64,000 nt of DNA. Source: Candidatus Anderseniibacteriota bacterium. Its GTDB lineage: Bacteria > Patescibacteriota > Andersenbacteria > UBA10190. Shown here one piece after another: positions 10,372 through 33,339 of this stretch. A program made the position numbers and the translations under genes. The stretch lies in the NCBI GenBank assembly GCA_016197005.1, contig JACPWO010000002.1, positions 79,851 through 143,850 of the forward strand. Reading direction: 5' to 3'. The notes beneath the pieces are model-generated. The model was not told where the DNA came from, made no database searches, and was given only the letters and a program-made list of their open reading frames with translations. The first letter of the stretch is position 1. Each line of letters begins with the position of its first letter.

Positions 10372-10400
10372 TTGACATTCACTCTGCTTTGCTCTATCAT
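10372..10400 (+). promoter_or_regulatory. sigma70-like promoter, TTGACA-17-TATCAT
   Basis: TTGACA at 10372-10377, a 17-nt spacer, then TATCAT at 10395-10400. About 95 nt upstream of the DEAD-box helicase start. Confidence 0.4.
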
Positions 10401-10458
10401 CCTTTCATTACTTTAGAGCGCACTTAAGCACTCAGTAACGGACTCGACCTTACGGCTA

Positions 10459-10494
10459 CATATGTGACCTGACAGGATCTGGGTCACACATATA
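10459..10494 (+). promoter_or_regulatory. imperfect inverted repeat (stem-loop or operator) abutting the helicase start codon
   Basis: CATATGTGACC-tgacaggatct-GGGTCACACATAT. The 10-12 bp arms end 1 nt before the ATG at 10496. No Shine-Dalgarno is visible. Confidence 0.4.
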
Positions 10495-10495
10495 T

Positions 10496-11770
10496 ATGAC
10501 GACAGGTACACCCTCCGCGCAGGGCGTTTCATTTTCGGATTTAGGACTTTCCCCAAAGCTATTGGGGGTACTTTCTAGTCTCAAATTCACGATTCCAACC
10601 CCAATTCAATTGAAAGCTATCCCAATCGCCGCTGCCGGTAAGGACGTTATTGGTATTGCTCAAACGGGCACTGGAAAAACACTAGCCTTTGCCTTACCGC
10701 TTTTGCAGCAAGCCTCACTAACAAAAAAACAGGGACTTATCATTGTCCCGACGCGTGAACTCGCTGCCCAAGTAGCCGAGCAGTTTAATGCTATTGGAAA
10801 ATCATTTGGTCTTCGCCAAGCTCTCTTAATTGGAGGCGGGGCGATGTATCACCAGATTGAACAGATTAAAAAGCGACCTCACGTTATTATTGGTACCCCG
10901 GGACGCATCATTGATCACCTGGAAGGAAAGCGTCTCAATTTAAGTAGTGTTGGTATCCTCGTGCTTGATGAAGCGGATCGCATGTTGGATATGGGATTTG
11001 CGCCACAAATAAAACAGATTTTAAAACATGTTCCTAAACAACGACAGACCATGTTATTTTCTGCAACAATGCCATCCGAAATTGTGAAGATTGCGCAGGA
11101 ACACATGAAGATGCCAGTGCGAGTAGAAGTAGCCCGAGCTGGTACTATTGCTGAACGTGTTAACCAGGAACTCTTTATTATTGAACGCAATGATAAGTTG
11201 CGTCTCTTGGATAAACTTTTAAATGAATACTACGGAACAGTGCTCGTGTTTTCTCGCACCAAATATGGGGCTAAGAAAATTTGCCGCTCAGTCCGCCACA
11301 TGGGACATAGCGTAGCGGAAATTCACTCAAATCTATCTTTGCCACAGCGTCGTCGCTCACTGGAAGGATTTAAGTCTGGAAAATTCCGTGTCTTAATTGC
11401 TACTGATATCGCCGCTCGTGGGATTGATGTTACTGATATTGAAGTAGTTATTAACTTTGATTTACCAGATAGTCCCGATGATTATGTCCATCGCGTAGGA
11501 CGAACGGGTCGAGCCGGAAAGACCGGACACGCTATTACGTTCATTACTCCTGATCAACGCAGTAAAATACGTATGATTGAACGCCTCGTTCGTCAGCAAC
11601 TCCGTATTTCACCGCTTCCTGAGTTGCCAGCAGCTCGAGCTATGCCAGCACACGTCCCGACCTCTAGCGGCTACCAGCATCGTAATCGTCGAGTATTTCG
11701 CCGACCAACGAGGCAGCAACCGCGCTATGCTCACAAATCAAGCGGTCGTGGGGCTCGTATCCATTCCTAA
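10496..11770 (+). CDS. DEAD-box ATP-dependent RNA helicase
   Basis: Q-motif region; motif I AQTGTGKT; motif II VLDEADRML; motif III SAT; motif VI HRVGRTGRAG; Arg-rich C-terminal tail. Confidence 0.95.
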   Translation: MTTGTPSAQGVSFSDLGLSPKLLGVLSSLKFTIPTPIQLKAIPIAAAGKDVIGIAQTGTGKTLAFALPLLQQASLTKKQGLIIVPTRELAAQVAEQFNAIGKSFGLRQALLIGGGAMYHQIEQIKKRPHVIIGTPGRIIDHLEGKRLNLSSVGILVLDEADRMLDMGFAPQIKQILKHVPKQRQTMLFSATMPSEIVKIAQEHMKMPVRVEVARAGTIAERVNQELFIIERNDKLRLLDKLLNEYYGTVLVFSRTKYGAKKICRSVRHMGHSVAEIHSNLSLPQRRRSLEGFKSGKFRVLIATDIAARGIDVTDIEVVINFDLPDSPDDYVHRVGRTGRAGKTGHAITFITPDQRSKIRMIERLVRQQLRISPLPELPAARAMPAHVPTSSGYQHRNRRVFRRPTRQQPRYAHKSSGRGARIHS

Positions 11771-11776
11771 ATACCT

Positions 11777-13588: not shown

Positions 13589-13613
13589 CAATTCGGGTCT
13601 CTGAAGGGGGATG

Positions 13614-15443: not shown

Positions 15444-15741
15444 CTATTGATTCGCCATATAAAGCTTTAAACGCAGCTGCTTGGCCAAGATCAAGGATGA
15501 GTATATCTGCCCGCCAGGCGAGCCAGGCAAGAACTACACCAATGATGAGAGCAAAGAAAATTGCTTTTATAGTCCATTTACCCAGTTTCCAAAGAATTAT
15601 GAACGGGATAATCAAAAGAAGTATTTGGCCATAAGGGACAATGAGATCTGTTAGAAAGGCTGTTATTACTGGCCATTTGTCCTCTGTATAAAACTGTGAG
15701 GGGTCATCCCCAATTAGTTTCAGTATCCAATCTGCAATCAT
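15430..15741 (-). CDS. small membrane protein (103 aa)
   Basis: 2-3 TM helices. Its 3' end overlaps the start of the lipase gene by 14 nt, and the two are co-oriented. Confidence 0.35.
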   Translation of the reverse strand: MIADWILKLIGDDPSQFYTEDKWPVITAFLTDLIVPYGQILLLIIPFIILWKLGKWTIKAIFFALIIGVVLAWLAWRADILILDLGQAAAFKALYGESIDERY

Positions 15742-15838
15742 ACAAAAACTATATCAATATTCCGCCATCGCAGGAAATCGAGGATAAAAAATAAGCTAAC
15801 TCGTTGACTCTCAGGTACGATAGGTATATACAAAAACT

Positions 15839-16468
15839 ATGAACCAGCGAATAATCGTCGCTTCTCTTGTGGCCGCAATCGTCGTAGTTGCAATCGCAAT
15901 TGCTGCTGGCTGGTATTTTATAAATCCAAAAGAAGCCAGTGCACCAACCGAAAGCACACCACAACCAACTCCCCCAATTGATGTAGAAAATACAGTATTT
16001 ACTGGTCCAGCTGCGGGACTGTTGTCACTGGGAGAAGATATAATGTGTACGTTTCAAGACGCAGGCACTGAAGGTACGGTATATATCACTGGCCAAGGAA
16101 AACAAATGCGTGGAGATTTTGTAACACAAGTAAATAGCACCGCCACAAATGTTTCCCTGATTCGGGATAATCAGTACACGTATATATGGTCTGATACTGA
16201 GTCGCAGGGGATAAAGATGGCCGTAACGCAGGAACAGGCTATCGGAGCAGCTCCGCAAGACGATACGAATCAGAATGCCATGCTTGATAAGGCATACACG
16301 TATGATTGCAATAAGTGGACAGTGGATATGACTAAGTTCACACCTCCAGCCGGAAAGAATTTCGTTGATCTCGCGCAGCAGCAAGTGCCACAACTCGATT
16401 GTGCTAAGTGTAAAACTCTCAAAGGAGCAGCTAAAAAGCAGTGTCTTCAGGCTCTTAGTTGCAAATAA
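15839..16468 (+). CDS. membrane-anchored or secreted hypothetical protein, Cys-containing
   Basis: N-terminal TM MNQRIIVASLVAAIVVVAIAIAAGWYFI. Six Cys in the ectodomain, with a CAKCK...C cluster at the C-terminus. Confidence 0.4.
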   Translation: MNQRIIVASLVAAIVVVAIAIAAGWYFINPKEASAPTESTPQPTPPIDVENTVFTGPAAGLLSLGEDIMCTFQDAGTEGTVYITGQGKQMRGDFVTQVNSTATNVSLIRDNQYTYIWSDTESQGIKMAVTQEQAIGAAPQDDTNQNAMLDKAYTYDCNKWTVDMTKFTPPAGKNFVDLAQQQVPQLDCAKCKTLKGAAKKQCLQALSCK

Positions 16469-16510
16469 AGCGAGTACTGTAATAAGTTTTAATATTTATA
16501 AGTAGTTTTT

Positions 16511-16900
16511 GTGACGACAGAAGAATTTGAAAAATTAGTTGAAGAAGGTTTTGCAAAAATTCCGGAGCGACTACGAGAAAAAGTGAAGAACGTGGCTATT
16601 TTTGTGGAAGATGTTCCCTCACTGGAGACTCGAAAAAAACAAAACCTATCTCGTTACCAAACACTTTTTGGATTGTACGAAGGAATCCCAAATACGCGCC
16701 GGGCACATTATGGGGTGGGAATGACGCTGCCGGATAGAATCACTATTTTTCGTCAACCAATTGAGTCAGCCGCGGAAGGTGATCCGGAACACATACGAGA
16801 AATTGTTAGGGACACTATATGGCATGAAATCGCGCATCATTTTGGTATGGATGAGCCGGCCGTGCGCGCGAGCGAAAAGAAACGCAGACTCCGTCAATAA
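16511..16900 (+). CDS. zincin-like small metallopeptidase (Zincin_1 or DUF1025-like)
   Basis: HExxH at WHEIAHHFGMDE, plus conserved LFGLYEGIPNTRR and LPDRITIFRQPIE blocks. GTG start. Confidence 0.6.
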   Translation: MTTEEFEKLVEEGFAKIPERLREKVKNVAIFVEDVPSLETRKKQNLSRYQTLFGLYEGIPNTRRAHYGVGMTLPDRITIFRQPIESAAEGDPEHIREIVRDTIWHEIAHHFGMDEPAVRASEKKRRLRQ

Positions 16901-17041
16901 AAAGCGGGTAGTAAAGTGATACTTTCTTGCAAGTGGCCTTTTTTAAAATCCACACCTCACCCCTTGAGCTACTATCTGATGCGGGGTACAGTGACACGAT
17001 GTCTCAATTATTGAATTTCACAGATAGGGGAGGTGAGTTTA

Positions 17042-17617
17042 ATGAGTGACTACGATCAAGAAAAGAAAGATGGCGAACAAGGATGGATGCAACGAATACA
17101 AGAGTCGCCTCGAACCGTAACAGTTCTTCTCATCATTCTCATCGCTGCTGCCGCTATTTACGCTTTCTCAGGTGACCGACCGGCTCCAGGCGAAGAAGCA
17201 CCCACTGACGAAGACGTAACGGAAGAACAGGCTGAGGAAGAAGGAGATACAACTGGAATAGAAGACGGAGAAGAAGTAGCGGAAGAAGAAGGTACTGCTG
17301 CACCTGAACTTCCACCAGCTGAGCGCATCGAAGAAGGATTTGTCGAAACCGCTCAGAGTGGAGAAGGCATCACTCACTTAGCCCGACGTGCTGCGAGTCA
17401 GTATTTGTCAGAAAACAACGCAGGGTATGAAGTGACGAAAGAACATAGCGTCTTCATTGAAGACTATGTTCAAAACCAACTCGGTACACGTGGTCTGGCT
17501 TTGGGGGAACAGATGACGATTACGAATGACCTTATTGCCCAGGCAGTTGAAGCTGCCGGACAGCTTTCTGAGAATCAACTCAAAAACTTAAGTCAATACA
17601 CGTCAGCTTTACCGTAA
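17042..17617 (+). CDS. membrane-anchored acidic protein, hypothetical
   Basis: RBS GGGGAGGTGA 6 nt upstream of the ATG at 17042. One TM, then a Glu/Asp-rich segment, then a conserved-looking C-terminal domain. The track's GTG start at 17033 sits inside the RBS. Confidence 0.45.
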   Translation: MSDYDQEKKDGEQGWMQRIQESPRTVTVLLIILIAAAAIYAFSGDRPAPGEEAPTDEDVTEEQAEEEGDTTGIEDGEEVAEEEGTAAPELPPAERIEEGFVETAQSGEGITHLARRAASQYLSENNAGYEVTKEHSVFIEDYVQNQLGTRGLALGEQMTITNDLIAQAVEAAGQLSENQLKNLSQYTSALP

Positions 17618-17640
17618 AAGAATGCGGATAGCTAAGCCAA

Positions 17641-17665
17641 GAAACCCTGCGTGCGGCAGGGTTTC
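17641..17665 (+). other. perfect 10-bp hairpin (GAAACCCTGC-gtgcg-GCAGGGTTTC)
   Basis: It lies between the stop at 17617 and the msrA coding start. No U-tract follows it. It may be an attenuator or an RNA-processing structure. Confidence 0.4.
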
Positions 17666-17680
17666 TGGTATACTGGACGT

Positions 17681-18226
17681 GTGTCTGCAACTGAAATAGC
17701 CGTATTTGGTGGAGGTTGCTTCTGGTGTACCGAAGCAGTATTTCAAGAACTGCGAGGAGTTGTGTCTGTTATGCCGGGGTACGCTGGAGGAGAAACAAAG
17801 AATCCGACGTATGAAGAAGTCTCAAGTGGGAAAACCGGTCACGCGGAAGTTATTCGTATCGAATATGATCCGGAAAAGATTGCCTATCGAGATCTTCTGA
17901 CAGTATTTTTCGCTTCGCATGATCCCACGACAATGAATCGCCAAGGAAATGATGTCGGAACGCAATATCGTTCCGTGGTGCTGTACTCTACTCCTTCTCA
18001 AAAAGAAGAGGCGGAGAAAGTAATCGAGGAAATTAATACATCTCACGCTGAAGGCGGAGAAGTTGTAACTGAAGTAAAGCCGCTCGGAGGATTTACCAAG
18101 GCTGAAACCGAACATATTAACTTTTACCGAAATAACCCCGATCAAGCCTACTGCCAGGTTATTATTAATCCGAAACTAGAAAAAATTCAGAAAAAGTTTG
18201 CCAATTTACTCAAAAATAATTCCTAA
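17681..18226 (+). CDS. msrA: peptide-methionine (S)-S-oxide reductase MsrA
   Basis: Active-site motif FGGGCFWCTEAVF, YRSVV, and the typical length. I prefer the GTG at 17681 (MSATEIAVFGGGCFWC). The track's start at 17651 falls in the hairpin loop. Confidence 0.9.
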   Translation: MSATEIAVFGGGCFWCTEAVFQELRGVVSVMPGYAGGETKNPTYEEVSSGKTGHAEVIRIEYDPEKIAYRDLLTVFFASHDPTTMNRQGNDVGTQYRSVVLYSTPSQKEEAEKVIEEINTSHAEGGEVVTEVKPLGGFTKAETEHINFYRNNPDQAYCQVIINPKLEKIQKKFANLLKNNS

Positions 18227-18230
18227 ATAT

Positions 18231-18638
18231 ATGTCAGAAAAACGTATGAAAGCCGACAGCGAACTTCCCGAAGAGCTGTACCAAGTGGCACGAGAAAAAG
18301 GAACGGAAGCACCTTTTTCTGGAAAGTATGTGGATAACAAAGAAAAAGGAATGTACGTCTGTGCTGTATGCGGTAATCAACTTTTTTCTTCTGACACAAA
18401 ATTTGATTCCGGCACCGGCTGGCCGAGCTTTACGGAACCTGCCAACCTTACAAATATTGCTTTAAAAGAAGATAACGAAATGGGTATGCGGCGGACGGAA
18501 GTAGTGTGTAAAAATTGTGGTGCCCACTTAGGACACGTATTCGAAGACGGACCGGCGGAGGCGGGTGGAAAACGGTATTGTATCAACTCAGTGTGTCTTG
18601 AACTAGAAAAAGAGGGGGGTGGTAGTGATGGAAGGTGA
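18231..18638 (+). CDS. msrB: peptide-methionine (R)-S-oxide reductase MsrB
   Basis: GTGWPSF, CxxC zinc site CAVCGNQ...CKNCGAHLGHVF, RYCINS. The ATG at 18231 is 4 nt after the msrA stop. Confidence 0.9.
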   Translation: MSEKRMKADSELPEELYQVAREKGTEAPFSGKYVDNKEKGMYVCAVCGNQLFSSDTKFDSGTGWPSFTEPANLTNIALKEDNEMGMRRTEVVCKNCGAHLGHVFEDGPAEAGGKRYCINSVCLELEKEGGGSDGR

Positions 18639-18732
18639 TATGCAAAAAAGTGATGACCAAGGAAACGTTTGTCCAGGATGCGGTCATATGCATAAAGAGG
18701 ACGGCAGCTGCGATTGCGGTTGTGAGTCAAGG
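18628..18732 (+). CDS. possible 34-aa Cys-rich micro-protein
   Basis: MEGDMQKSDDQGNVCPGCGHMHKEDGSCDCGCESR*, with a CxxC...CxCxC pattern. Its start overlaps the msrB stop, and it ends 8 nt before the next gene. Confidence 0.25.
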
Positions 18733-18740
18733 TAAGCGCT

Positions 18741-20213
18741 ATGCAAAAGGAGCAAGTACAATATAGTTTTCTTGCTCTTTTTGTTTGGCTGCTCATTGCT
18801 GTTTTCTCCGCAGCCTATATTTACATCGGGTATTTGAATCTGACTCACCTGCGAGCAGGGGTGGATTTGGGAACTTACACCCAGCTACTCCACAACGTGA
18901 GCGAAAACCGAGTACCACCTTTTAATACTCTCAAGGAAATGGTTGCCTGGGGTGATCACGCCCACTTCATTCTGGCGATTTTTGCTCCGCTGTTTTCATT
19001 GTGGCCACATCCCATGTTCGTGGTGGTATTGCAGGTCATAGCACTTACCACGTCCGCCTGGCCAATATTTGCCATTGCTCGGAAAAAACTTGGCAGTGCT
19101 TTCTTTGCGCTGGCAATGACGATCGCGTACCTCGTTTTCTTTGGCGTTCAATATGCCCTGGATTTTGATTTCCATGCCAATACGCTTACAGCGGCAGCTT
19201 TGGCGTGGACATTCTATGCCTTTGAGACAAAGAAATGGCGATTGTTTTGGATAACATACGTGCTGGGACTACTGACACGAGAAGATGCGGCTGTCTTTTA
19301 TTTTGCATTGGCTGTCTATATTTTCTTAGCATACCGAAAGCAGTACAGACGGTTTTCGTTGATAATTGGCACTTTATCTCTCATTTATTTTTTTGCCGTT
19401 ACCTATTTTATTATGCCGCACTGGCAAGCGAGTGGAACACCGTTGGCATATTTTGATGTACCGGAATCTACTCGAAATCCAGTCGCTCTGGCTTGGTGGA
19501 TTATAACCAACCCCAAAACGATTTTACAGAACATGACGGAGTCAGACGTTGCTCGGCGTACGATGCGATACTTATTCCAATCCTTTGGCTTTCTTCCACT
19601 GGCTTCTCCCTTCACGTATCTGCTGGCTGCACCTAATTTCTTAGCCCGGTTCTTAAGTCCCGAAGGACAGCGTCATATGATGAATTTTCATTACAGTGTA
19701 AGTTTAGTTTCAATTTTGGCGTATGGAGCAATTCTGGGCACAGCTACCCTGACAAGCATACCTTCGTGGATAAGTCGGCGAACCTCTTCTCCAGCTCTTA
19801 AAAAATATATTATCTGGGCAGCTGCCGTAGTTTTATTGGTGGGCACACTCATATCTTCCTGGCGAGATATTGATTTGCCTCTAAGACAACTTCTGAGTGA
19901 AGAAGCGTTTAACCATCGATATGGTCTTGAAGTGCCATATGCAGAAGTACTGCAGCTACGTAACTCAATTTCACCCGAGGATAGTGTGGTTGCTACGTCG
20001 GGAGCAATTCCGCTCCTGGCAGTGCGTGAAGAAATATATTTGTTGCAGGAGATGCCAGTGAAGCCGGTTGATTGGGTTATTTTGACGCTGCGCGGAAATA
20101 CGTGGCCGCTTTCTCAAGCAGAGTTAGTTGAGACTGTAAGAAGTCTGCGATCAAGCCCTGAGTATGAACTTGTAGTTGGCAGTACCTACTTGGCAGTATT
20201 TCATCACCGGTAG
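18741..20213 (+). CDS. DUF2079-like polytopic membrane protein (putative GT-C glycosyltransferase)
   Basis: 490 aa, about 12 TM helices. The N-terminal loop motif GVDLGTYTQLL resembles the DUF2079 G.DLG.F.Q signature. There is a soluble C-terminal domain. Confidence 0.45.
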   Translation: MQKEQVQYSFLALFVWLLIAVFSAAYIYIGYLNLTHLRAGVDLGTYTQLLHNVSENRVPPFNTLKEMVAWGDHAHFILAIFAPLFSLWPHPMFVVVLQVIALTTSAWPIFAIARKKLGSAFFALAMTIAYLVFFGVQYALDFDFHANTLTAAALAWTFYAFETKKWRLFWITYVLGLLTREDAAVFYFALAVYIFLAYRKQYRRFSLIIGTLSLIYFFAVTYFIMPHWQASGTPLAYFDVPESTRNPVALAWWIITNPKTILQNMTESDVARRTMRYLFQSFGFLPLASPFTYLLAAPNFLARFLSPEGQRHMMNFHYSVSLVSILAYGAILGTATLTSIPSWISRRTSSPALKKYIIWAAAVVLLVGTLISSWRDIDLPLRQLLSEEAFNHRYGLEVPYAEVLQLRNSISPEDSVVATSGAIPLLAVREEIYLLQEMPVKPVDWVILTLRGNTWPLSQAELVETVRSLRSSPEYELVVGSTYLAVFHHR

Positions 20214-22702: not shown

Positions 22703-22844
22703 AATGGTTTTTATAAATTTATACTTCGTAGCTTAAGTTATTACTTATCGTTAGTCAATATATATTTATCGTTATTTATAGATAGAGAAAATGCTAAACC
22801 TTTTTTGTGCAGCGAAATCGAAAGAGAACGCAGACTATTTGAAG

Positions 22845-22917
22845 TGGACTGTAGCGGATTCGAACCGCTGACCTCTACAATGCGAATGTAGCGCTCTACC
22901 AACTGAGCTAACAGCCC
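22845..22917 (-). tRNA. tRNA-Ala (anticodon CGC)
   Basis: I folded the reverse complement GGGCTGTTAGCTCAGTTGGTAGAGCGCTACATTCGCATTGTAGAGGTCAGCGGTTCGAATCCGCTACAGTCCA by hand. It has a 7-bp acceptor stem with the Ala identity pair G3:U70. The anticodon stem is CTACA/TGTAG, the loop TTCGCAT gives anticodon CGC, and the T-arm is GGTTCGAATCC. CCA is not encoded. Confidence 0.85.
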
Positions 22918-23057: not shown

Positions 23058-23579
23058 ATGATGGTGCAGCTGAGATCTCGTCGTGCTCCTCCGTGGAGCC
23101 CTGCCTCCATGCGCGCTCTGCGTGAAATGGAAAAAAGATATGGCGCTGCTCAAGAACAAACCGATCACTTTGCGGTTTGGTATTTTAATGGGCCATGGAA
23201 ACGAACGGTAGTGTACCGCGAGACTGTACCACATCACTTTCCTCATCCCCACGAAGATGTGTTATCTCAAACAGTGGACTATCCCGTGCCGGTAAATAAA
23301 GTAGAAAAGCTTATGGAGTTTGATGGCAGTCTTGTTATCGATCGAACAAAGGGAGAGTTAACGGCTCACTGTAACAGTGAGGAACTTAATCGAGCACTTT
23401 TAAATTTGGCTCACGATATCGTTATTGGGAAGCAAACACCTGACGAAGCGCGTGAAATGTTGCGTAGTATTTACAATGCCCTCCGTCTAAATTGGCCGGA
23501 AGACTATGCAGTAGCCCTAAATTTTTCGAGATTGGACCCGCTCTACGAAGCCCGAGATCCCGACCGAGCGGGTAAATAG
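23058..23579 (+). CDS. hypothetical protein
   Basis: 173-aa ORF with no motifs I recognise. I prefer it over the overlapping antisense ORF at 22989..23252. The true start may be an internal Met (MRALREMEKRYG). Confidence 0.3.
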   Translation: MMVQLRSRRAPPWSPASMRALREMEKRYGAAQEQTDHFAVWYFNGPWKRTVVYRETVPHHFPHPHEDVLSQTVDYPVPVNKVEKLMEFDGSLVIDRTKGELTAHCNSEELNRALLNLAHDIVIGKQTPDEAREMLRSIYNALRLNWPEDYAVALNFSRLDPLYEARDPDRAGK

Positions 23580-23697: not shown

Positions 23698-24420
23698 ATG
23701 ATGAATCGTCTTTTCGCAAGCGTAGTCGCTATGGCTATGGTTTTTGCTCCAAACACTAGCATTGCTTTAGCTATCGGCGGTGCTGAAATCCAAATTGATG
23801 GGTTTGAACTCACTGAATGTGATCCAGATACCATCGAAGTTGCCTTCAATGTCGTGGTTGCCGAAGAAGGAGCCCTCGACTTAGTTGAAGTAAAGAAGGA
23901 TGGCACTATCCTCTTTGAAAGCGAACACGTTAATGATCCAGAAACAATTGAGTTCACAAAAGAAGCTCTCACTCCTGGTTCACACACGCTCACCGCAACC
24001 ATCTACAATAACGATGACAAAGAAGTTGTGCTCGTATCCGACACATACACCTTTGATGTAGAGTGCGAACGTTCTCCTCAGGTTATTGATGAGAGCAATG
24101 CGCACGTAAACATTAATGGTTCTGGCGGTGATGCAGATTGCTGCCCAGGTAACGGAGGGGGAAGCAGCGACAATGGATCTGACAAGACTTCTACTGTTGC
24201 AAAGAAACCAGCAGTAAAGGGTGCTACTACAAAGGCAGTCAGTTCTAAGAAGTCACTGAAGCCGTTGAACAGCGTATTTCGTTCTGTATTTGGCCGCACG
24301 CCAACGTTTACAGAGTGGAAATACTGGGCAAACCGGTATCTTACCGACAAGCCACAATGGAATGCTCTATACGGAGCTATGCAGTGGCACAAATTGCGTG
24401 GCCACACAATGGGTGCATAA
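23698..24420 (+). CDS. secreted protein with Lys-rich linker and conserved ~50-aa C-terminal module (shared with the S8 protease)
   Basis: Strong RBS GGAAGGGAGGTGA; signal peptide MMNRLFASVVAMAMVFAPNTSIALA. The C-terminus FRSVFGRTPTFTEWKYWANRYLTDKPQWNALYGAMQWHKLRGHT aligns with the C-terminus of the gene at 30622..32304. Confidence 0.55.
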   Translation: MMNRLFASVVAMAMVFAPNTSIALAIGGAEIQIDGFELTECDPDTIEVAFNVVVAEEGALDLVEVKKDGTILFESEHVNDPETIEFTKEALTPGSHTLTATIYNNDDKEVVLVSDTYTFDVECERSPQVIDESNAHVNINGSGGDADCCPGNGGGSSDNGSDKTSTVAKKPAVKGATTKAVSSKKSLKPLNSVFRSVFGRTPTFTEWKYWANRYLTDKPQWNALYGAMQWHKLRGHTMGA

Positions 24421-24446
24421 AACACATTAACGTGTGTTATAACCAA

Positions 24447-24476
24447 GCCCGCCTGTATAGGCGGGTTTTGGTTTTC
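24447..24476 (+). terminator. rho-independent terminator
   Basis: CCCGCCT-gtat-AGGCGGG stem-loop followed by TTTTGGTTTT. Confidence 0.6.
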
Positions 24477-24538
24477 TGACATTATTGGGGATAAGTGGTA
24501 TTGCCAGCAGTTCAATCGATCATTAGCGTAAGTATGAT

Positions 24539-25192
24539 ATGCAAAACGCATGGGGGACATGGGCGTTAGCGCTTGTTGCTTTTGGAGTATTTACTCTTGG
24601 GGCAGTAGAAGTGAAGGCTGTGAATTTTGACGAACTCCGTCAGCAGCTTGAGGAACGCCGAGCTGCTCGTCGTGCTCTTTTAGAAGAACGTTTTCCAGAT
24701 AGTAACGATAACGAGCCGACACAGCCAAATGAAAACGGAGAAGAAAATACTTTGCCACAAAATCCAGCGACATGTGAATGCTCCACAAAATTAGGATTAG
24801 CTCGTCCAGATATTCGTTGGAATAACGGAGTACTAGAATTAGTGCCAAGATTTGATGTAGCAATTACGGTTGATGGGGAAGAAGGCGCGGAGCCATGGGA
24901 TCTTACCTTGGCGTATAACGGGAAAGTAGAAAACACTACCTTCAACGGGCAGCGTCAGTTTGGAGCCCAATGTTTCGATGGTCGGTATAAATACAGTGGT
25001 ATTGCCAGTCAGCCAGTTACTGTGTCTAGTATTCTCCGCAGTGCTTTTGGAACAAAAGCAGATCAAGAAGTTCCGGTCCATCTAGCCGCTACGCTCAGTG
25101 GTTGTGACAGCGACAGTATTACGAAGCAAGCAGCGATTCGTATTAGAGATTTGGGGAATATGAAAATAGGTACCTGGAGAACCGTACGATAA
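24539..25192 (+). CDS. secreted hypothetical protein
   Basis: Signal peptide MQNAWGTWALALVAFGVFTLGAVEVKA; four Cys in the mature part. Confidence 0.45.
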   Translation: MQNAWGTWALALVAFGVFTLGAVEVKAVNFDELRQQLEERRAARRALLEERFPDSNDNEPTQPNENGEENTLPQNPATCECSTKLGLARPDIRWNNGVLELVPRFDVAITVDGEEGAEPWDLTLAYNGKVENTTFNGQRQFGAQCFDGRYKYSGIASQPVTVSSILRSAFGTKADQEVPVHLAATLSGCDSDSITKQAAIRIRDLGNMKIGTWRTVR

Positions 25193-25439
25193 TTACTACC
25201 ATTTGTAATATTTCATGATGTTTTTTGAATTGAAGCAAGAGCTGATGCAAGTAAAAAGTGAGTTAGAAAACAAAAAGTGGTCTAACTGTGGATAACTTCC
25301 TCTTGCGTATCATCTCTGTTCACATGACGATACAACGATCTCTTAAAAACGGTTATTTCAGCAGAATTTAAGGGAATTAGCCTTACAAACATAATGCAGA
25401 CGAACACAATAAATAAAATATGGAAGGAGGTGAGTGCAG

Positions 25440-26567
25440 ATGAATACACGATACTTAGCATCTTTGCTTAGCATTTCTACACTCGCTCTTCTTTTAACAG
25501 TAACGCCAGCAATGGCAGCTGTTGAAGTAGAAGTAGAGGGGGAAAATGCTAACACTGGCTCTGATTCTGATAACACCAATGATTATGATGTCGATAACGA
25601 CTATGATCTTGATGTTGATAACGACGGCGATGTTGATAACGATGCTGATGTTACTGCCGATACCGGCGATAACGATCAGAACGACAACACTACTGGCGGC
25701 GATCAGGAATCAGGCAAAATCAACGGTTCAGTCGAATGGGAGAACGTAGTTAACGCTAGCGCAGCTCTCGTTGGAGCAGATACAGATGGTAACCTCACGG
25801 TTGAAGGAGACTTCAACAATGAAGAAACCGGTTCTGATTCTGACAATACAAACGAATTGGACGTTGATAACGACGTAGATATCGACATCGACAATATTGC
25901 CGATATCTTGAACGATTTGGACTTTACCGCCGATACAGGCGATAATGACCAAAACGACAACACCACAGGCGGTGACCAAACTTCCGGCGACGCTACATTA
26001 GTAGCGATGTTCGGTAATTGGGCAAACAACGGTGGATACGCTGGGTCTGGCGCAGGAAGCGTCGAAGTCGAGGTTAAAGGTTCTAACCAGGAGACTGGTT
26101 CAGATTCCGATAATACGAACGACTTTGACATTGACAACGATTATGATCTCGACATCGATAACGATGCCGACTTTAATAACGATGTCGACGTAACGTTAGA
26201 CACAGGAGATAACGACCAGAGCCGCAACACTACTGGTGGAAGTCAAGAATCTGGCAAAGCTAAAGTTACAGTTGACCTCGTCAACGTAGCTAACAGCGGA
26301 GCTGGAGCTTCTACAGGTGGTAGCAGCATTGCGGTTGAAGCTAAAACAAGCAACAACCACACTGGTTCTGACTCGGACAACACTAACAACGTAGACGTCG
26401 ATAACGACGTTGACGTTGATGTTGAAAATGACGCTGACGTCGATAACGACGTTGATGTTACTGCCGATACAGGCGATAACGACCAGAATGACAACACCAC
26501 AGGAGGAAATCAAACTTCCGGTGATGTAGAGATTGAAATCTCAATCTCTAACGACGTGAACAACTAA
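25440..26567 (+). CDS. secreted Asp/Asn-rich tandem-repeat protein (4 x ~90 aa)
   Basis: RBS GGAAGGAGGTGA 9 nt upstream of the ATG at 25440; signal peptide MNTRYLASLLSISTLALLLTVTPAMA. There are four copies of TGSDSDNTN-x-DxDNDxDxDxDND-...-TADTGDNDQNDNTTGGxQxSG. Confidence 0.6.
   Translation: MNTRYLASLLSISTLALLLTVTPAMAAVEVEVEGENANTGSDSDNTNDYDVDNDYDLDVDNDGDVDNDADVTADTGDNDQNDNTTGGDQESGKINGSVEWENVVNASAALVGADTDGNLTVEGDFNNEETGSDSDNTNELDVDNDVDIDIDNIADILNDLDFTADTGDNDQNDNTTGGDQTSGDATLVAMFGNWANNGGYAGSGAGSVEVEVKGSNQETGSDSDNTNDFDIDNDYDLDIDNDADFNNDVDVTLDTGDNDQSRNTTGGSQESGKAKVTVDLVNVANSGAGASTGGSSIAVEAKTSNNHTGSDSDNTNNVDVDNDVDVDVENDADVDNDVDVTADTGDNDQNDNTTGGNQTSGDVEIEISISNDVNN
25556..26545 (+). repeat. in-frame tandem DNA repeat, about 270-nt period, 4 copies
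   Basis: Copies of GG(C/T)TC(T/A)GA(T/C)TC(T/C/G)GA(T/C)AA... begin at about 25556, 25830, 26098 and 26364. Confidence 0.6.
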
Positions 26568-26690
26568 CAGCTAGGACGTACGTCACAGCTGAACTAAAAG
26601 TTCACCCGTTTGTGAGCGGGAGGCAGGCCTTAAAACTTGTCTTCCGCCACGAGCGATGGTATATAGAGGAGATTTTTAAAATATTCATGA

Positions 26691-29600
26691 ATGATAATTA
26701 CTAATCGCAAACTGAAACACATTACATCGCAGGGGGTAGCAATTTTTGTCAGCACAATGCTGGTATTTGGACTTCCTTCTGCTGTTTTTGCGCAAGAAGA
26801 AACTCCAACTGAGCAAGCCCCACCTTCCGAAGAAACAACGGCTGCTCCTGCCGAAGTAGAAAAGCCATGCACGAGTGGCTGTAACCAAGGGGCGAATCAA
26901 GGTGTAGGCCAAGGTGGACCTACGGTTGAGGATCTAGGCGGGACGTATGATGAGCAAGGTAGTGCAGTATTGCCTGCTGGTACACAAGATACGCGTCAAG
27001 GCGCGGGTCAAGGTACACCGCAAGCTGCTAGCACTTCAGCGGATGTGAGTGGAAGTAACACGAATACCGGTTCGGGTTCAACAAACACTGCTGGTACAAA
27101 TGTTTCGAATACTCAAACAACTGGTATTACGAATACCGCCACTGATTCAAGCTCTATCGATGCTTTGGGTAATACTGGTGGTAATACTAATAGTGGCAAT
27201 ACGAAAACGGGGCCAACCACAACTGGCAATGCTAGTATTGGTGTCACTCAAGTAAAAAACGATAATACTGCCGTAGTTGGTGGAGATGTTGGTCTAGCTG
27301 TATCTGGACATAATGGCGACTACAATGGCGATCTCAACCTAGATTTTAATGGTCTGGCTTCCCTTTTAGCAGGTGATGGATCCGAGCGATCAGTCCAGGC
27401 TGTAAATAATGCGACTGGCTCCAACTCATCGAATGATGTGGTGGTGTCGTTTGAAGATATTAGTGATACCGAAGTACAGAATGATGGGGAGATTACAAAT
27501 GATGTCGATGTAGCTGCAATCACAGGACAGAACGATGCCAGTCGTAATACGTCTGGTGGCACGATTCTCACGGGTGATGCCAACATTGCTGCTACGCTCG
27601 TCAATTTGTTAAATACCACTGTTCTGAATGGAAATGTGTTTGTCACAGTAAAAGATATTTTTGGTAATTTAACCGGTAATATTAATATTCCTGACTTAGG
27701 TCAGCTCGCCTCATTTCTTTCTGGCGGCGGTCAAGTTGGTGTAGAAGCAGACAACAGCAACACTGGCAGCAATTCAAGCAATTCAATTGATGTAGATATC
27801 ACTGACGAAGACACCTTCACGGTAGATAACGAAGCAAATATAGATACAACAGTTCGGGCTCGCGCAATAACTGGTCAAAATGAAGCCTCAGATAATACTG
27901 GTGGTGGCTTTATTGATACCGGCGACGCTTCTGTATCTGCCAGCAACATTACAATCGCTAACACCACTATTGAAGGTGGTAACTGGGGACTAGTTATCGT
28001 AAATGCACTAAATAAATGGCTTGGTTTTTTAGTGGGTGATTCTGGTGAAGTACGAGCACTTTCGCAGGACGAAACAATTCGTGAAGTTGAGGCTCGCAAC
28101 AACAATACCGGGTCAGGTTCAGATAACACGATTGAAGTTGATGATGTCACTCGGGATACCACTTCCGTAGATAATGACGCGGATATTACAAACAACATCA
28201 CAGCGAGTGCAATCACCGGGCAAAATACAGCTAACCGAAACACTGGTGCTGGTGCAATCAAAACTGGTAATGCAACTGTAAAAGCAACTGCCATTAATAT
28301 TGCAAACACCACTGTAAAGAACGCTAACTTAGGCATCGCAGTAGTTAATATTTTCGGCGACTGGCTCGGTGATCTGTTCTATGGTGGTCAGTCTCTCTTT
28401 GGTGCAAATAGTGCCGCTAACACTCAAGTAGAGGTAGAGGCAGAGAACGAAAATACCGGAGCTGATTCTGACAATACGGTTGATGTAACTGTTGACCGAA
28501 GTCATGTAACCGATATCACCAACGATGCCGATATCTCTACAACCCTGGAAACCGAAATAGATACCGGTAACAACCGTACGAACCGCAATACACGTGGTGG
28601 TTCCATCGAAACCGGAAACAGCGACCTAGCTCTCCATAGCCGAACGATTGCAAACTTGACTGCTCTTATGGATGGCGGCGGACTCAATATTGATGTTCAT
28701 GGAGATAACAATTCAACCGGAGTTGATTCCAAGAATATCATTCGGGCTACTGTTAATGACGAACGTATTATTACCGTGACCAACGATGCAAACGTAAGCA
28801 CTATCCTGCCAGGTCTGGTGAATACTGGTAACAACGAGTCAAGCGACAACACAATTGGTGGTGAGATTGAAAGCGGAGATATTAATGCCAAGGTGGCTGT
28901 CGATAATATGGTCAACCGCTTCATTCTCGCTCTCGGCTCTCCAATAACAACTGGTACGGGTGCAGCGGCTGTTATTGATGGTGACCTCAATAATAACCTG
29001 ACCGGATCGGGTTCACTCAACACCAATGACATTGACGCCACCCGTGACTTCTTACGTACGCTCTTTAATGACGCGGTAGTAAATACAATTATCGACTTAC
29101 TCTTTAACACCGGCGGTAATCAGTCGAATGATAATACGGGGACCGGCTCAACTTCGCCGTTTGCTCCTGCCTCTACGCCTACAACGAGTGCTGCGGCTTC
29201 CACAACTCCTGCTCCATATGTAGCCGCTATTGCGCAACCGCTTGGATATAGCCAGGCAACAATTGACGAGGTGTCGGAGAACAAAACGAATGAATCTTCA
29301 TCAACGGCAAATACTGAAGCGCAGAGTGATCAACAAGAAGACGGAGACAGTAAGACATTTATGGCCGCTTCTGAAGAGTCAAAAACTGTTTTCAAGAAAG
29401 TAGCTGCAGTTTCAACACCAGATTCATCTGAAGATGCCGAAGAGTCAGATATTGTTCCACAACCAGTAGTGGCAACAACTACCCTGCCTCCTCGTAATCC
29501 TCGTCGTCCGCAAAGACTGGCTGCTCTTATCCGCCCATCGCTAGCCGCCGCTCCATCTACGAACGTTCCTGCACCGCAACATTCAGTATCTCCAGAGACC

Positions 29601-29693
29601 AAGCAACAACCAGGTTTTCCAACAATTATTGTTATTGGAACAATATTTGGCACGCTCACCGGAGGGGCAGCAGTGCGACGCCTTTCCGTATGA
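26691..29693 (+). CDS. large secreted repeat protein (1000 aa), S-layer/adhesin-like, with PGF-CTERM-like C-terminal anchor
   Basis: - Signal peptide MIITNRKLKHITSQGVAIFVSTMLVFGLPSAVFA.
- At least five ~115-aa repeats with the skeleton NTGSxSxN...ND(A/D)(D/N)I...AITGQNxAxxNTxGGxIxTGD(A/S)...NTT.
- A Ser/Thr/Pro/Ala-rich linker.
- C-terminus PGFPTIIVIGTIFGTLTGGAAVRRLSV, a tripeptide then a TM helix then a basic tail. Confidence 0.6.
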   Translation: MIITNRKLKHITSQGVAIFVSTMLVFGLPSAVFAQEETPTEQAPPSEETTAAPAEVEKPCTSGCNQGANQGVGQGGPTVEDLGGTYDEQGSAVLPAGTQDTRQGAGQGTPQAASTSADVSGSNTNTGSGSTNTAGTNVSNTQTTGITNTATDSSSIDALGNTGGNTNSGNTKTGPTTTGNASIGVTQVKNDNTAVVGGDVGLAVSGHNGDYNGDLNLDFNGLASLLAGDGSERSVQAVNNATGSNSSNDVVVSFEDISDTEVQNDGEITNDVDVAAITGQNDASRNTSGGTILTGDANIAATLVNLLNTTVLNGNVFVTVKDIFGNLTGNINIPDLGQLASFLSGGGQVGVEADNSNTGSNSSNSIDVDITDEDTFTVDNEANIDTTVRARAITGQNEASDNTGGGFIDTGDASVSASNITIANTTIEGGNWGLVIVNALNKWLGFLVGDSGEVRALSQDETIREVEARNNNTGSGSDNTIEVDDVTRDTTSVDNDADITNNITASAITGQNTANRNTGAGAIKTGNATVKATAINIANTTVKNANLGIAVVNIFGDWLGDLFYGGQSLFGANSAANTQVEVEAENENTGADSDNTVDVTVDRSHVTDITNDADISTTLETEIDTGNNRTNRNTRGGSIETGNSDLALHSRTIANLTALMDGGGLNIDVHGDNNSTGVDSKNIIRATVNDERIITVTNDANVSTILPGLVNTGNNESSDNTIGGEIESGDINAKVAVDNMVNRFILALGSPITTGTGAAAVIDGDLNNNLTGSGSLNTNDIDATRDFLRTLFNDAVVNTIIDLLFNTGGNQSNDNTGTGSTSPFAPASTPTTSAAASTTPAPYVAAIAQPLGYSQATIDEVSENKTNESSSTANTEAQSDQQEDGDSKTFMAASEESKTVFKKVAAVSTPDSSEDAEESDIVPQPVVATTTLPPRNPRRPQRLAALIRPSLAAAPSTNVPAPQHSVSPETKQQPGFPTIIVIGTIFGTLTGGAAVRRLSV

Positions 29694-29699
29694 TGTGCT

Positions 29700-30611
29700 A
29701 TGTTTCAAAAGTTGTCTGACGCAATTCGTAAAGATAAAAAGCGTGCCTACCTTCTGCTCGGAGTAGGAGTGCTTGTATTGCTTCTCATATTAATACAAGC
29801 GACTACTCCTTCTCGTCGTATGCGACAATTGCGTGGAGCAGCTGAGAATTTAGCGGCCGCCGAAACGATGCATACCAAAGCTGAATTAGAACTTAACTTG
29901 CCGGTACAACTTCGTACTCAGGAGCGACCCATTGTTGGTGTAACCGCTCGAGTAGAAGGAGATGTAGACAATCGCGGCGAGCGTCCCCAGCTCAGTGGTA
30001 CTGTTTTCACCGAAGCACGAGGCCGAGGTATGATCCTGTTTGCTGATGGTCAAATTCGCATTCTGCAAGATAAGGTTAGATTCAATTTAGTAAATCTTCC
30101 TGCCCTTCTTAATCCACGCGGCACCCTCATTAACAAATGGACGAACGTTGAGGTTCCGCTGCTTGAGACAAATAACAGTGATGAAGTTAAAAATGCCATT
30201 GGTGCCATTGTCGCTGGAGCAAAATATGTAGGCGAAGAAGATCTACCAGGAGTTGAAGGGGTGTCGGCGAAAAAGTTTACTCGTACATTTACGGCAGAAG
30301 AGGAAGAAGTACTCAGCGAGGCATTTCGTCAGGGACATAGCGGTAATCGCGGATTACATATCCTGACCCGCTTGCTGCGCGCCTTTGATGTGCGGACATT
30401 TGAAATATGGGTCACGGGCGATGAAGTACGACGCGTCTATACGGAGTTCGCTAAAGAGAATGACGCTGAGCCTCGCGCGAAATTAACTCTGGAGTTTAGT
30501 GATTTTGGAAAAGAAGTAACCATCGAGGAGCCTGAACAGGAGATTAATGTTGATGGTGCAGTCTTTGGGCGAATCTTCGGTCGCGGCGAAATCAGCGAGA
30601 TAGAAAATTAA
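29700..30611 (+). CDS. membrane-anchored hypothetical protein
   Basis: N-terminal TM AYLLLGVGVLVLLLILI. Starts 7 nt after the previous stop. Confidence 0.45.
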   Translation: MFQKLSDAIRKDKKRAYLLLGVGVLVLLLILIQATTPSRRMRQLRGAAENLAAAETMHTKAELELNLPVQLRTQERPIVGVTARVEGDVDNRGERPQLSGTVFTEARGRGMILFADGQIRILQDKVRFNLVNLPALLNPRGTLINKWTNVEVPLLETNNSDEVKNAIGAIVAGAKYVGEEDLPGVEGVSAKKFTRTFTAEEEEVLSEAFRQGHSGNRGLHILTRLLRAFDVRTFEIWVTGDEVRRVYTEFAKENDAEPRAKLTLEFSDFGKEVTIEEPEQEINVDGAVFGRIFGRGEISEIEN

Positions 30612-30621
30612 AGATACGGTT

Positions 30622-32304
30622 GTGAGTTTCCGTGTCTGTTTTACTCGCAGTCTGGCACTACTGCTGGCGCTTATCCTTGTTACTCCGCCGCTGACTCTGA
30701 AAGCGGAAGAAGGATCAGTGTATTTAATAGTAGAAGCTGATCATTTCTTTGACATACCTCGAGATATTCGTCTGCAGACACATGTGCGTCCGCTCGGGAG
30801 AGATGAAGCGCTGCAGCGCTGGTATTCGGTAGAGGTAAGCGAAGACGAAGCTGACAGTATATTAGAGCAGCTACAAGCTTCCTCAGCTATTATTTCTGCT
30901 CGCCGCTCTTATATCTATACAACCGCTGCATTGCCAAACGATGCTCTTTTCTCGCAGCAGTATGCCTTGAATAGCCAAAGCTCGCCTCTAGCAGATATTA
31001 ATGCTTCCGCCGCCTGGGACAGGACGACGGGAAGTAGTAGTACTGTCATTGCCATCATTGATGGTGGTGTTGAGGAAGATCACGAAGATCTCCGAGGAAA
31101 AATATGGACGAATACGGACGAGGTAGTTGGTAACAATATTGATGATGACAATAACGGGTATATCGATGATGCTCATGGCTGGGATTTTATTGGACAGCGC
31201 CCTTCTGGCGAAGCTATTAACCACGCTACCCACGTAGCTGGTATTGCGGCAGCCAGTGGTAATAACGGTATAGGTGTTGCCGGTGTAGACTGGGGAGCCC
31301 GAATAATGTCAGTGCGAGTACTCTCCTCCAACGGAGCGGGTCGTGAAGACAGTATTATTGAAGGCATAGAATACGCTATTGCCAATGGTGCTGATGTTAT
31401 TAACCTCAGTTTGGTTGGTGCTCCCTCGAATGCATTGCAAGAAGCAATTGAACATGCGTATACCGCCGGGGTTGTGGTAGTAGCTGCCGCAGGAAATTCA
31501 AACGCTAACACCTCTTCATTCCAAGTTTTTCCGGTATGTGCCGATGGTGGTAGTAATATGGTGCTTGGTGTTGGGGCAACGGATGAGTCTGCTGAGCCGG
31601 CGAGTTTTAGTAATTACGGTGATTGTGTTGATATATCTGCTCCGGGAAATCATATTTTGAGTGCTCGCACACGAAGTAGGTATGGTGAAATGTCAGGCAC
31701 TTCCATGAGCGCGCCGTTTGCAGCGGGTGTAGCTGGTCTGTACTTATCCATCCATCCTGGCGCTTCCCCCAGTGAAGTTATAAATGCCTTGAGCGCGAGT
31801 GCGGGCAATTTTGTTGGTGAAGACAGCGATCAATGGAATGCGCAATATGCTGGTCGTCTTGATGCCGCCGCAGCCGTTGGTAGCTCTGTGCCCGAACCAA
31901 CACCAACTCCTACATCTTCATCTTCTCCTACCCCGACTCCTCAGCCGGAAAATACGAGTAGTTCACAACAAAATTCTGGTGGCAGTAGTGGTGATTCGGG
32001 TGGTGGAGGAGGCGGCGGTGGCGGAGGTGGGGGCGGAAGCTCAGAAGAATCAAAGCCAGCAGCCAAGCCAAAACCGAAACCAAAGGTATTGGGTATAAAA
32101 ACAGTAAAGCCTAATCTAGCGCTGATTCCACAAATAAACGCAGCCTTTCGTTTAGTCTTTGGAAGAAACCCGTTGGTAGTTGAACATGGGTATTGGTATG
32201 GTCGCGTAAAGCGCGGAGACAAGCGTACCTTTATCGAGCTAGTTGGGGCAATGGCCTATCAAAAAGCTAAAGGCTTTACCTACGTTCCCCTGAAAAAGAA
32301 ATAA
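30622..32304 (+). CDS. subtilisin-like serine protease (peptidase S8) with Pro/Thr linker, Gly12 tract and conserved C-terminal module
   Basis: Catalytic triad regions IAIIDGGV (Asp), HATHVAGIAAA (His), GTSMSAPFAAGVAGL (Ser). The C-terminus has PTPTPTSSSSPTPTPQP, then GGGGGGGGGGGG, then a KPKPKPK linker, then FRLVFGRNPLVVEHGYWYGRVKRGDKRTFIELVGAMAYQKAKGFT. GTG start. Confidence 0.85.
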   Translation: MSFRVCFTRSLALLLALILVTPPLTLKAEEGSVYLIVEADHFFDIPRDIRLQTHVRPLGRDEALQRWYSVEVSEDEADSILEQLQASSAIISARRSYIYTTAALPNDALFSQQYALNSQSSPLADINASAAWDRTTGSSSTVIAIIDGGVEEDHEDLRGKIWTNTDEVVGNNIDDDNNGYIDDAHGWDFIGQRPSGEAINHATHVAGIAAASGNNGIGVAGVDWGARIMSVRVLSSNGAGREDSIIEGIEYAIANGADVINLSLVGAPSNALQEAIEHAYTAGVVVVAAAGNSNANTSSFQVFPVCADGGSNMVLGVGATDESAEPASFSNYGDCVDISAPGNHILSARTRSRYGEMSGTSMSAPFAAGVAGLYLSIHPGASPSEVINALSASAGNFVGEDSDQWNAQYAGRLDAAAAVGSSVPEPTPTPTSSSSPTPTPQPENTSSSQQNSGGSSGDSGGGGGGGGGGGGGSSEESKPAAKPKPKPKVLGIKTVKPNLALIPQINAAFRLVFGRNPLVVEHGYWYGRVKRGDKRTFIELVGAMAYQKAKGFTYVPLKKK

Positions 32305-32306: not shown

Positions 32307-32954
32307 CTATTGTTGTAGCGCTGAATCGATCGAACTTTTGAGAGCAGTAGCTGAGTACGAACCAGTATAATGCTGGTCGTTTATAAAGAGAGTTGGTGTA
32401 CCTCGAATTCCCAGGGCGCGGCCATCAGCAACGTCAGCAGCTACAACATCACGATGAGTATGTTCATCTAAGGCTGTTCGAAATGCTTCCATATTCAATC
32501 CTAATTCCTGGGCATATTTTTCTAGGTCAGCACGCGTCAGGGCCGGTTGACTTTCAAACATCTTGTCATGGTATTCCCAAAACTTTCCTTGTTTTTGTGC
32601 TTCAACGGCAGCTTCAGCTGATAGCTGAGCGTGTTCGTGAAGTTGAGTAAGCGGGAAGTGACGGAAAACGAATTTGACTGACTGATCAGCATATTCTTCC
32701 TTTAGTTGTTTCAAAAGAGGGTGAAGAGATCCGCAGGCAGGACACTGAAAGTCTCCAAATTCGACCACAGTTACTTTAGCGTCTTGAGCACCAAGGACTG
32801 GATCATCTTCTTGTGATAATCGCTCTGGTTGATCGACACTTGGACCAACTTCGCCAGTTTGGGCGGCATTGCGGTTGGTATATAATCCGGCACCAATAAT
32901 GATGCCAACAGTGGCAACAATTACGCCAATAATCACTTTGGTGTCAGTTGTCAT
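32307..32954 (-). CDS. DsbA-like thiol:disulfide oxidoreductase (thioredoxin fold), membrane-anchored
   Basis: CxxC active site FGDFQCPACGSLHP with an N-terminal TM. I start it at MTTDTKVIIG (32954); the longer track ORF would overlap the VKOR gene. Confidence 0.75.
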   Translation of the reverse strand: MTTDTKVIIGVIVATVGIIIGAGLYTNRNAAQTGEVGPSVDQPERLSQEDDPVLGAQDAKVTVVEFGDFQCPACGSLHPLLKQLKEEYADQSVKFVFRHFPLTQLHEHAQLSAEAAVEAQKQGKFWEYHDKMFESQPALTRADLEKYAQELGLNMEAFRTALDEHTHRDVVAADVADGRALGIRGTPTLFINDQHYTGSYSATALKSSIDSALQQ

Positions 32955-33339
32955 GTTGTTTAGGGTGCAGCCATACAATAAAAAAGGCAAGAGTGGCCAA
33001 GACGGCACTGGCGACACACCATTGGCACCAAGCTTCAACCACAAAAGCCTCCAGATACGTAAGATACAAGGACACAATAAAGCCGCTTGCAGTTATAAGC
33101 TTGAGCCACGTTTTTTTCTCTAGCGCTGTAGCGATGCCTAGTGCGGCATAAAACAGAATTCCGTACGCAGCCGTTGGAATACCGAAGTGCGAAGCAAATC
33201 GACTAGCTTGAACTATGTGACAGCCACCATCGTCACCGCATAGGAGCGGCAAGGCGGAGACGTGCGTAATAAACAAGTAACCAGATATGAGTAATCCGGC
33301 AAACGCGACGGTAGCAAGTAAGTATTTTCTTGCAATCAA
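32944..33339 (-). CDS. vitamin K epoxide reductase (VKOR) family protein
   Basis: 4-TM protein with a loop Cys pair LLCGDDGGC and a TM CxxC, AWCQWC. It overlaps the downstream DsbA-like gene by 11 nt. Confidence 0.7.
   Translation of the reverse strand: MIARKYLLATVAFAGLLISGYLFITHVSALPLLCGDDGGCHIVQASRFASHFGIPTAAYGILFYAALGIATALEKKTWLKLITASGFIVSLYLTYLEAFVVEAWCQWCVASAVLATLAFFIVWLHPKQHDN

Follow-up and report, generated by a model that had tools for sequence, protein, structure and literature searches.

A diverged DUF4214-type module on exported proteins of Candidatus Andersenbacteria and its possible role at the cell surface

In a 64-kb stretch of contig JACPWO010000002.1 from a Candidatus Anderseniibacteriota genome (“the window”), two otherwise unrelated exported proteins end in what looks like the same short segment: gA, of 240 amino acids (aa), encoded at 23698..24420 on the + strand, and gF, a 560-aa subtilase of the S8 family (30622..32304, +). 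Is the resemblance real? If so, what is the segment, and what could it be doing on two such different proteins? The shared tail is real and highly significant. It is very probably a DUF4214-type module specific to exported proteins, one whose sequence has drifted too far for the Pfam model to pick up the window copies; the DUF4214 domain is known, and what is new is this diverged and so far unannotated branch of it. The best overall explanation, with a probability of roughly 0.55, is that the module is a portable C-terminal appendage on Sec-exported proteins, which would retain its passengers non-covalently at the surface.

The shared tail and its family

The first-pass annotation had aligned the two tails by eye, and both open reading frames (ORFs) and both C-terminal sequences that it quoted were confirmed. 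It would have given up the relationship at an E-value above 0.01 after composition correction; BLASTP with compositional adjustment finds 25 of 62 positions identical (40%) at E=7e-12, far below that limit. The Smith-Waterman score of the pair is 91, against 21 +/- 4 (maximum 46) for 5000 shuffles, none of which reaches 91 (z=17), and a hidden Markov model (HMM) built from database copies of the module only scores the gF tail at 69 bits and the gA tail at 95 bits. A Lys/Pro-rich spacer precedes each copy, as the annotation had described, and such low-complexity sequence might suggest that the likeness is a by-product of chance or biased composition; the composition-corrected E-value, the distance from the shuffled scores and the 385 database clusters with the same profile refute this, and it can be given almost no weight. 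Two details needed amending: the alignment is not strictly gap-free, as one single-residue indel falls inside the module (RYLT-DK vs RVKRGDK), and the glycine tract of the protease has 13 residues, not 12. The window holds exactly two copies, because nothing else in its six-frame translation scores above noise (regular-expression scan and two HMMs with filters off); a third, degenerate module was sought by regular expression and HMM in the window's LCAT-like lipase and elsewhere in the window, and none was found.

gA is an exported protein in four parts, delimited from the ORF, its homologues and AlphaFold2 (AF2) models. A signal peptide (aa 1-25, MMNRLFASVVAMAMVFAPNTSIALA; 23698..23772, +; cleavage site putative), recognized from the sequence and a hydrophobic-segment test, is followed by an Ig-like beta-sandwich (aa 30-130; 23785..24087, +), which AF2 predicts with eight strands at a predicted local distance difference test score (pLDDT) of 84-95 and which gives weak Pfam matches to Big_3_5 and Big_7. 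The linker that comes next (aa 131-186; 24088..24255, +) is predicted to be disordered (pLDDT 40-52, with aa 137-180 below 50); in the alignment of homologues it carries a nearly invariant DCCPG (24136..24150) and a V-K-G-A motif (24214..24225). The C-terminal module (aa 187-240; 24256..24417, +) is predicted as a three-helix, DUF4214-like unit and has a net charge of +6; in the model of the whole protein it is helical from aa 183 to 233 at pLDDT 92-97, and the linker separates it from the Ig-like domain. The family of gA has 23 members at E<=0.01, all unannotated, including an identical hypothetical protein (240 aa) in the Candidatus Andersenbacteria metagenome-assembled genome (MAG) GCA_016178385.1 (contig JACOTL010000006.1). 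N-terminal domains in this family are just 30-57% identical, and conservation is by far highest in the final ~55 residues, where N, F, V, P, E-W, Y-W, R, D-K and G-A-M-Q-W are invariant; one member has two tandem modules behind an unrelated N-terminus. Two more cysteines are conserved in the Ig-like domain, besides those of the linker's D-C-C-P-G(P-D).

gF matches Pfam Peptidase_S8 at 2.6e-49, with the catalytic domain at aa 139-394 (31036..31803, +). Its low-complexity linker (31873..32121, +) is composed of PT-rich and S/G-rich stretches, the Gly13 tract (31999..32037, coinciding with a tandem repeat at 31999..32036), a K/P-rich stretch and V-L-G-I (32086..32097). A single DUF4214-like module (aa 501-553; 32122..32280, +) is followed by a seven-residue basic tail, YVPLKKK (to 32301), with which its net charge comes to +9.

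What kind of segment is this? Run on a 19-sequence module alignment, AF2 returns a three-helix unit with a mean pLDDT of 93. The structure prediction that the first-pass annotation had called for is therefore a confident one, of three helices preceded by disordered sequence, and the segment is predicted to be an autonomous domain of ~54 residues. It is strongly basic (mean net charge +3.8 per 57 aa) on carrier proteins that are otherwise neutral to acidic, rich in conserved aromatic residues, amphipathic, and free of any hydrophobic stretch; it does not fit a sorting signal of the sortase, PGF-CTERM or PEP-CTERM type, which would be a short motif with a hydrophobic transmembrane helix and a basic tail behind it at the very C-terminus. 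A V-x-G-[AVIMLT] motif (VKGA in gA, VLGI in gF) lies 16-20 residues upstream of 80 of 210 modules (38%), compared with a background rate of 9.6% of windows, inside the predicted disordered linker, and could be a processing or recognition site.

The annotation had put no family name to the module. It is recognizable after all, as a diverged member of DUF4214 (PF13946). The motif F-x-x-V-F-G-R-x-P-x(5)-Y-W resembled that family, and the likeness was then tested with profiles. A canonical DUF4214 protein with eight repeats (P0064, 277.8 bits in Pfam) is retrieved by the module profile at E=8.8e-23 in an exhaustive search of 1.84 billion representative proteins, and hhalign matches 204 modules of the type found in candidate-phyla-radiation (CPR) bacteria to the eight P0064 repeats with 96.3% probability (E=1.6e-9, 43 columns, no gaps). 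In the other direction, an HMM of the canonical repeats alone gives both window modules ~12 bits (per-comparison E ~7e-6) and matches 127 of the 204 instances. PF13946 itself weakly matches 11 of 19 isolated gA-family modules and, at E<=1e-3, 39 of the 144 carriers covered by the Pfam counts; a protein with an S8 domain and three modules (P0024) exceeds the whole-protein cut-off (27.6 vs a gathering score of 23.2 bits) only by summing its three copies. Compared with the canonical core, [FY]-x-x-h-[LF]-G-R-x-[PA]-D-x-x-G-x-x-Y-W, both window copies keep F-x-x-V-F-G-R-x-P and Y-W, and have the canonical Asp and Gly replaced (T/L, E). On this evidence the module is placed in the DUF4214 superfamily, as a distinct branch invisible to annotation.

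The annotation was right that the module is not an SLH, LysM, cell-wall-binding or sortase element: Pfam models for SLH, LysM, CW_binding and PG_binding match neither gA nor gF (E<=1) nor the isolated modules (E<=10). A PDB sequence search with the module profile gave no match, and a Foldseek search of PDB nothing below E=3; a word-indexed protein search gave no candidate with a two-sequence module alignment and one 81-aa match with a 90-sequence alignment.

Distribution and a putative anchoring role

The exhaustive profile search and local HMMs supply the taxonomic and architectural data. The search matched 385 protein clusters at E<=1e-3, of which 158 reach E<=1e-10 and 14 reach E<=1e-30; architecture, position and copy number were counted in 167 retrieved carriers. 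In 138 of these the module ends no more than 15 residues from the C-terminus. A hydrophobic segment is present at the N-terminus of 139, and the remaining 28 are mostly evident fragments (non-ATG starts or truncated). This is the pattern of a discrete domain that recurs at the C-terminus of exported proteins not otherwise related. One copy is present in 86 carriers, two in 65, and three to five in 16. The partner Pfam domains are Peptidase_S8, alpha/beta-hydrolases of the LCAT/PGAP1/lipase kind, DUF11, fn3, FG-GAP, Laminin_G_3, DUF2341, SpoIID, LytR_C, astacin, GH5 cellulase and Ig-like domains. Cytoplasmic carriers, which the first-pass annotation had named as evidence that would count against its proposal, did not come to light in this search; the partner domains are all of extracytoplasmic types. 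The module is not strictly C-terminal, because some carriers (P0025, P0027, P0030, P0036, P0038 and P0048) hold one copy directly behind the signal peptide, together with two at the C-terminus.

Genomes encode several carriers each, and the module seems to come and go among orthologues. Orthologous proteases differ in module number from one to three, with two or three in the gF orthologues P0037, P0082, P0051, P0024 and P0067 vs one in gF. The window's own secreted lipase of the LCAT/PGAP1 type (13614..15443, -) is without the module and has an unrelated, charged helical tail of ~110 aa, and one or two modules stand at the end of its orthologues P0040, P0096, P0089, P0093 and P0052, a case in which C-terminal domains have been swapped. 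The three named carrier records are all from Candidatus Andersenbacteria, and the genome matches are CPR MAGs labelled Saccharibacteria or “bacterium”; a contig scan with the narrow pattern GAMQW[HQ]xx[RHQ]G, which is not a genome-wide census, found six loci, all of the gA type.

These traits (terminal position, variable tandem number, flexible linkers, many unrelated exoproteins per genome, gain and loss among orthologues) resemble those of the non-covalent anchoring modules of monoderm bacteria. In the explanation put forward here, a portable C-terminal appendage would be used in Candidatus Andersenbacteria and related CPR bacteria in one to five copies, joined to its passenger by a disordered linker. 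Signal peptides would export gA and gF, and the linker, disordered by prediction, would act as a flexible stalk; the basic, aromatic-rich module might then, by analogy, bind an anionic component of the envelope non-covalently, most likely a surface glycopolymer, and the Ig-like gA and the protease gF would thereby be retained at the cell surface. That the envelope in question is the producer's own is a tentative suggestion. DUF4214 has been proposed as a surface-anchoring domain of SFB surface proteins (PMC12780176, PMC3371716), as part of S-layer-anchored enzymes (PMC11970703), and as stabilizing the RTX-DUF4214 protein Psh on the O-antigen of lipopolysaccharide (LPS; bioRxiv 10.64898/2026.09.02.748959).

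Several points weigh against this explanation. PF13946 has no match in whole gA or gF (E<=1) or in the isolated modules (E<=10), and the taxonomic range of the module rests on few named records. In the window itself, polysaccharide genes do not adjoin the gene block to which gA and gF belong. We know of no DUF4214 ligand that has been demonstrated biochemically, and to our knowledge the envelope composition of Andersenbacteria has not been established. O-antigen binding by Psh rests on modelling (bioRxiv 10.64898/2026.09.02.748959).

The six-gene cassette and rival readings

Six co-directional genes, gA-gB-gC-gD-gE-gF (23698..32304, +), form a block that opens with gA and closes with gF. Their products all look exported. 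The S8 protease aside, none has a significant family match; gC and gE have just weak, sub-threshold ones, gC by low-complexity similarity to SD repeats and gE by similarity to an SCO4651-type lipoprotein. gB (24539..25192, +) is a 217-aa exported protein with syntenic counterparts in two other loci, L003 and L005; like gD, it has no Pfam or NCBIfam match. gC (25434..26567, +) is a hyper-acidic secreted protein of 377 aa, with four repeats of ~90 aa, 93 D/E vs 7 K/R, a pI of ~4 and a net charge of ~ -86; its orthologues in L003 and L005 are 59-63% identical. gD (26691..29693, +), a 1000-aa acidic repeat protein (pI ~4.1, net charge ~ -75) with orthologues in L003, L005 and L008, starts with a signal peptide, ends in a transmembrane anchor that is conserved, and shares with gC the repeat motif TG-x-N...NT-x-GG. 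A PGF-CTERM-like signal on gD (QQPGF, a transmembrane segment and RR) was rejected, as PGF is absent in the L003 and L005 orthologues. gE (29700..30611, +), of 303 aa, has an N-terminal transmembrane segment and orthologues in the same three loci as gD. Neither gD nor gE has relatives among solved structures.

The same six genes occur in the same order in L003 (a JGI metagenome contig, 10001..18884) and L005 (GCA_964373855.1, 5215..14236), with pairwise identities of 33-63% and different flanking genes, and L006 and L008 have a partial block. The genes directly upstream of the cassette in L003 and L005/L006 are a glycan-biosynthesis block, with GT4 glycosyltransferases, DUF4012 and a MurJ/Wzx-type flippase (L003 431..7257; L005 458..4268; L006 1..9054), a setting that speaks for the retention explanation. 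The products of the cassette may form a surface structure in these uncultured organisms. Genes of the gA family also occur without a cassette nearby (L004, L007 and L009-L013), and in L015 a protease with S8, fn3 and two modules stands alone.

Possibilities for the role of the module other than retention on the producer's envelope are of unequal merit. One is that it is a protein-protein docking unit, like a dockerin or a phycobilisome linker, by which gA and the S8 protease would attach to the acidic, membrane-anchored gC/gD and make a decorated surface array. The gene order, which L003 and L005 keep although their flanks differ and which L006 and L008 keep in part, with the module on the products of the first and last genes, would fit such an array, as would the opposite charges of gC (~ -86) and gD (~ -75) and the modules (+6, +9); moreover, phycobilisome-linker relatives of DUF4214 bind proteins, and PF00427, the phycobilisome linker model, is matched by three canonical multi-repeat DUF4214 relatives, and by these alone. 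Charge complementarity is not specific, however, and against docking stand the gA-family genes with no cassette nearby, the solitary L015 protease, and the presence of the module on lipases and on some dozen further types of enzyme; docking is unlikely. A similarly doubtful alternative is that the module targets an external substrate or a host cell, so that proteases, lipases and glycosidases would be brought to a polymer or envelope that is not the producer's own. Bacteria of this kind are considered episymbionts, most passengers are enzymes of degradation (S8, astacin, LCAT-type lipase, cellulase) or adhesin-like folds (FG-GAP, Laminin_G_3, DUF11, Ig), and many carbohydrate-binding modules are likewise basic and rich in aromatic residues. 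Yet Pfam, PDB sequence and Foldseek searches show no similarity to any known carbohydrate-binding module, the SpoIID and LytR_C carriers act on their own cell wall, and every role so far proposed in print for DUF4214 is at the surface of the producing cell.

The first-pass annotation had offered, besides a surface-retention domain, a cognate tag for the co-encoded protease. On this account the module, or the V-x-G motif, would be a recognition or processing site for the S8 enzyme, removed from substrates such as gA or recruiting them; the two genes do share a conserved cassette, and the motif, found ahead of 38% of modules vs 9.6% of background windows, falls within a disordered linker that would be open to cleavage. 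The account is not supported and is very improbable, because linkage of the two genes is not obligatory, the protease itself carries the module (also when S8 and module are fused in a gene standing alone, as in L015), and lipases and many other enzymes carry it too. Most carriers do not adjoin an S8 gene, the cassette is often absent around gA-family genes, and the module, well folded and highly conserved, is a domain rather than a short degron. Retention of exported proteins at the surface, set out above, stays the preferred reading. A more ambitious form of it is unlikely: that the diverged DUF4214 is the general non-covalent envelope anchor of Andersenbacteria-like CPR bacteria, in the role of SLH or CWB in Firmicutes, and that the cassette builds an array in which the gA and gF modules are docked on gC/gD.

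Some features of the surroundings may be recorded. Directly after the cassette, in this genome and not in L003, are genes for a DsbA-like thioredoxin and VKOR (32307..33339, -), which together with the gA cysteines hint at disulfide-dependent folding. Just upstream of gA is a 173-aa ORF (23058..23579) with no family match and no obvious signal peptide; L005 and L006 have it at the corresponding place (48-50% identity), and L003 does not. Farther off, a PilB-type T2SSE ATPase gene (52554..54278) is followed by several co-directional ORFs, one with CarboxypepD_reg domains; this locus (52554..62718) is probably type IV pilus-like. GC content is even across the window, at 44-48%, and its sole RNA gene is a tRNA-Ala (22844..22917).

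Significance and comparison with known systems

DUF4214 is widespread and its function has not been demonstrated; what emerges here is a compact, single-unit and strongly basic branch of it that current domain models miss, and that marks several hundred secreted protein families in CPR bacteria. A dedicated HMM would label many CPR “hypothetical proteins” as surface or secreted, and a small module predicted to fold so confidently would be a convenient probe for DUF4214 binding partners. If the combination of anchor and gC/gD docking were true, a ligand would for the first time be defined for a DUF4214 domain, and the cell surface of these uncultured episymbionts would become easier to approach. 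The value is otherwise modest and practical, a better annotation of CPR exoproteins, with no new kind of system revealed.

How does the module compare with what is already known? Canonical DUF4214, a helical repeat of secreted, S-layer and RTX proteins, is all-helical, as the module is predicted to be, and similar in size (~55-70 aa), has the same core register (h-x-x-[FY]-x-x-h-[FL]-G-R-x-P-x-x-x-[GE]-x-x-Y-W-x-x-[RK], then a second helix pair), and occurs C-terminally, often in tandem, on secreted peptidases and Ig-fold proteins. The window-type module differs in the replacement of the Asp that follows GR-x-P and of the Gly ahead of YW (P-T/N ... E-W/H), in a third helix with G-A-M-x-[WY]-[HQ]-K-x-x-G rather than S-x-E-[FY], in low copy number (1-5, vs up to 8 or more), in its strongly basic character, and in having so far been seen in CPR MAGs. 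The phycobilisome linker domain (PF00427, e.g. PDB 2KY4, 3OHW) is helical and belongs to the same superfamily as DUF4214, but phycobilisome linkers are cytoplasmic, ~130 aa long and bind phycobiliprotein rings, and the window module shows no significant sequence or structure match to that domain; the window proteins have no Pfam match to PF00427.

Another parallel is Psh of Pseudomonas putida, whose export is of type I and needs RTX repeats, unlike that of the proteins here with their Sec signal peptides, and whose LPS O-antigen is, as far as known, absent from this organism. Psh is nevertheless a secreted protein with a C-terminal DUF4214 part that has been proposed to tether it to a glycan of the surface, encoded beside glycan-biosynthesis genes as the cassette is in L003 and L005 (bioRxiv 10.64898/2026.09.02.748959). 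The anchors of monoderm bacteria (SLH, CWB2, LysM and choline-binding repeats) have no sequence relationship to the module and a fold other than its three-helix unit. In their way of working they resemble it: short terminal modules on many unrelated exoproteins, attached by flexible linkers, variable in tandem copy number, and gained and lost among orthologues.

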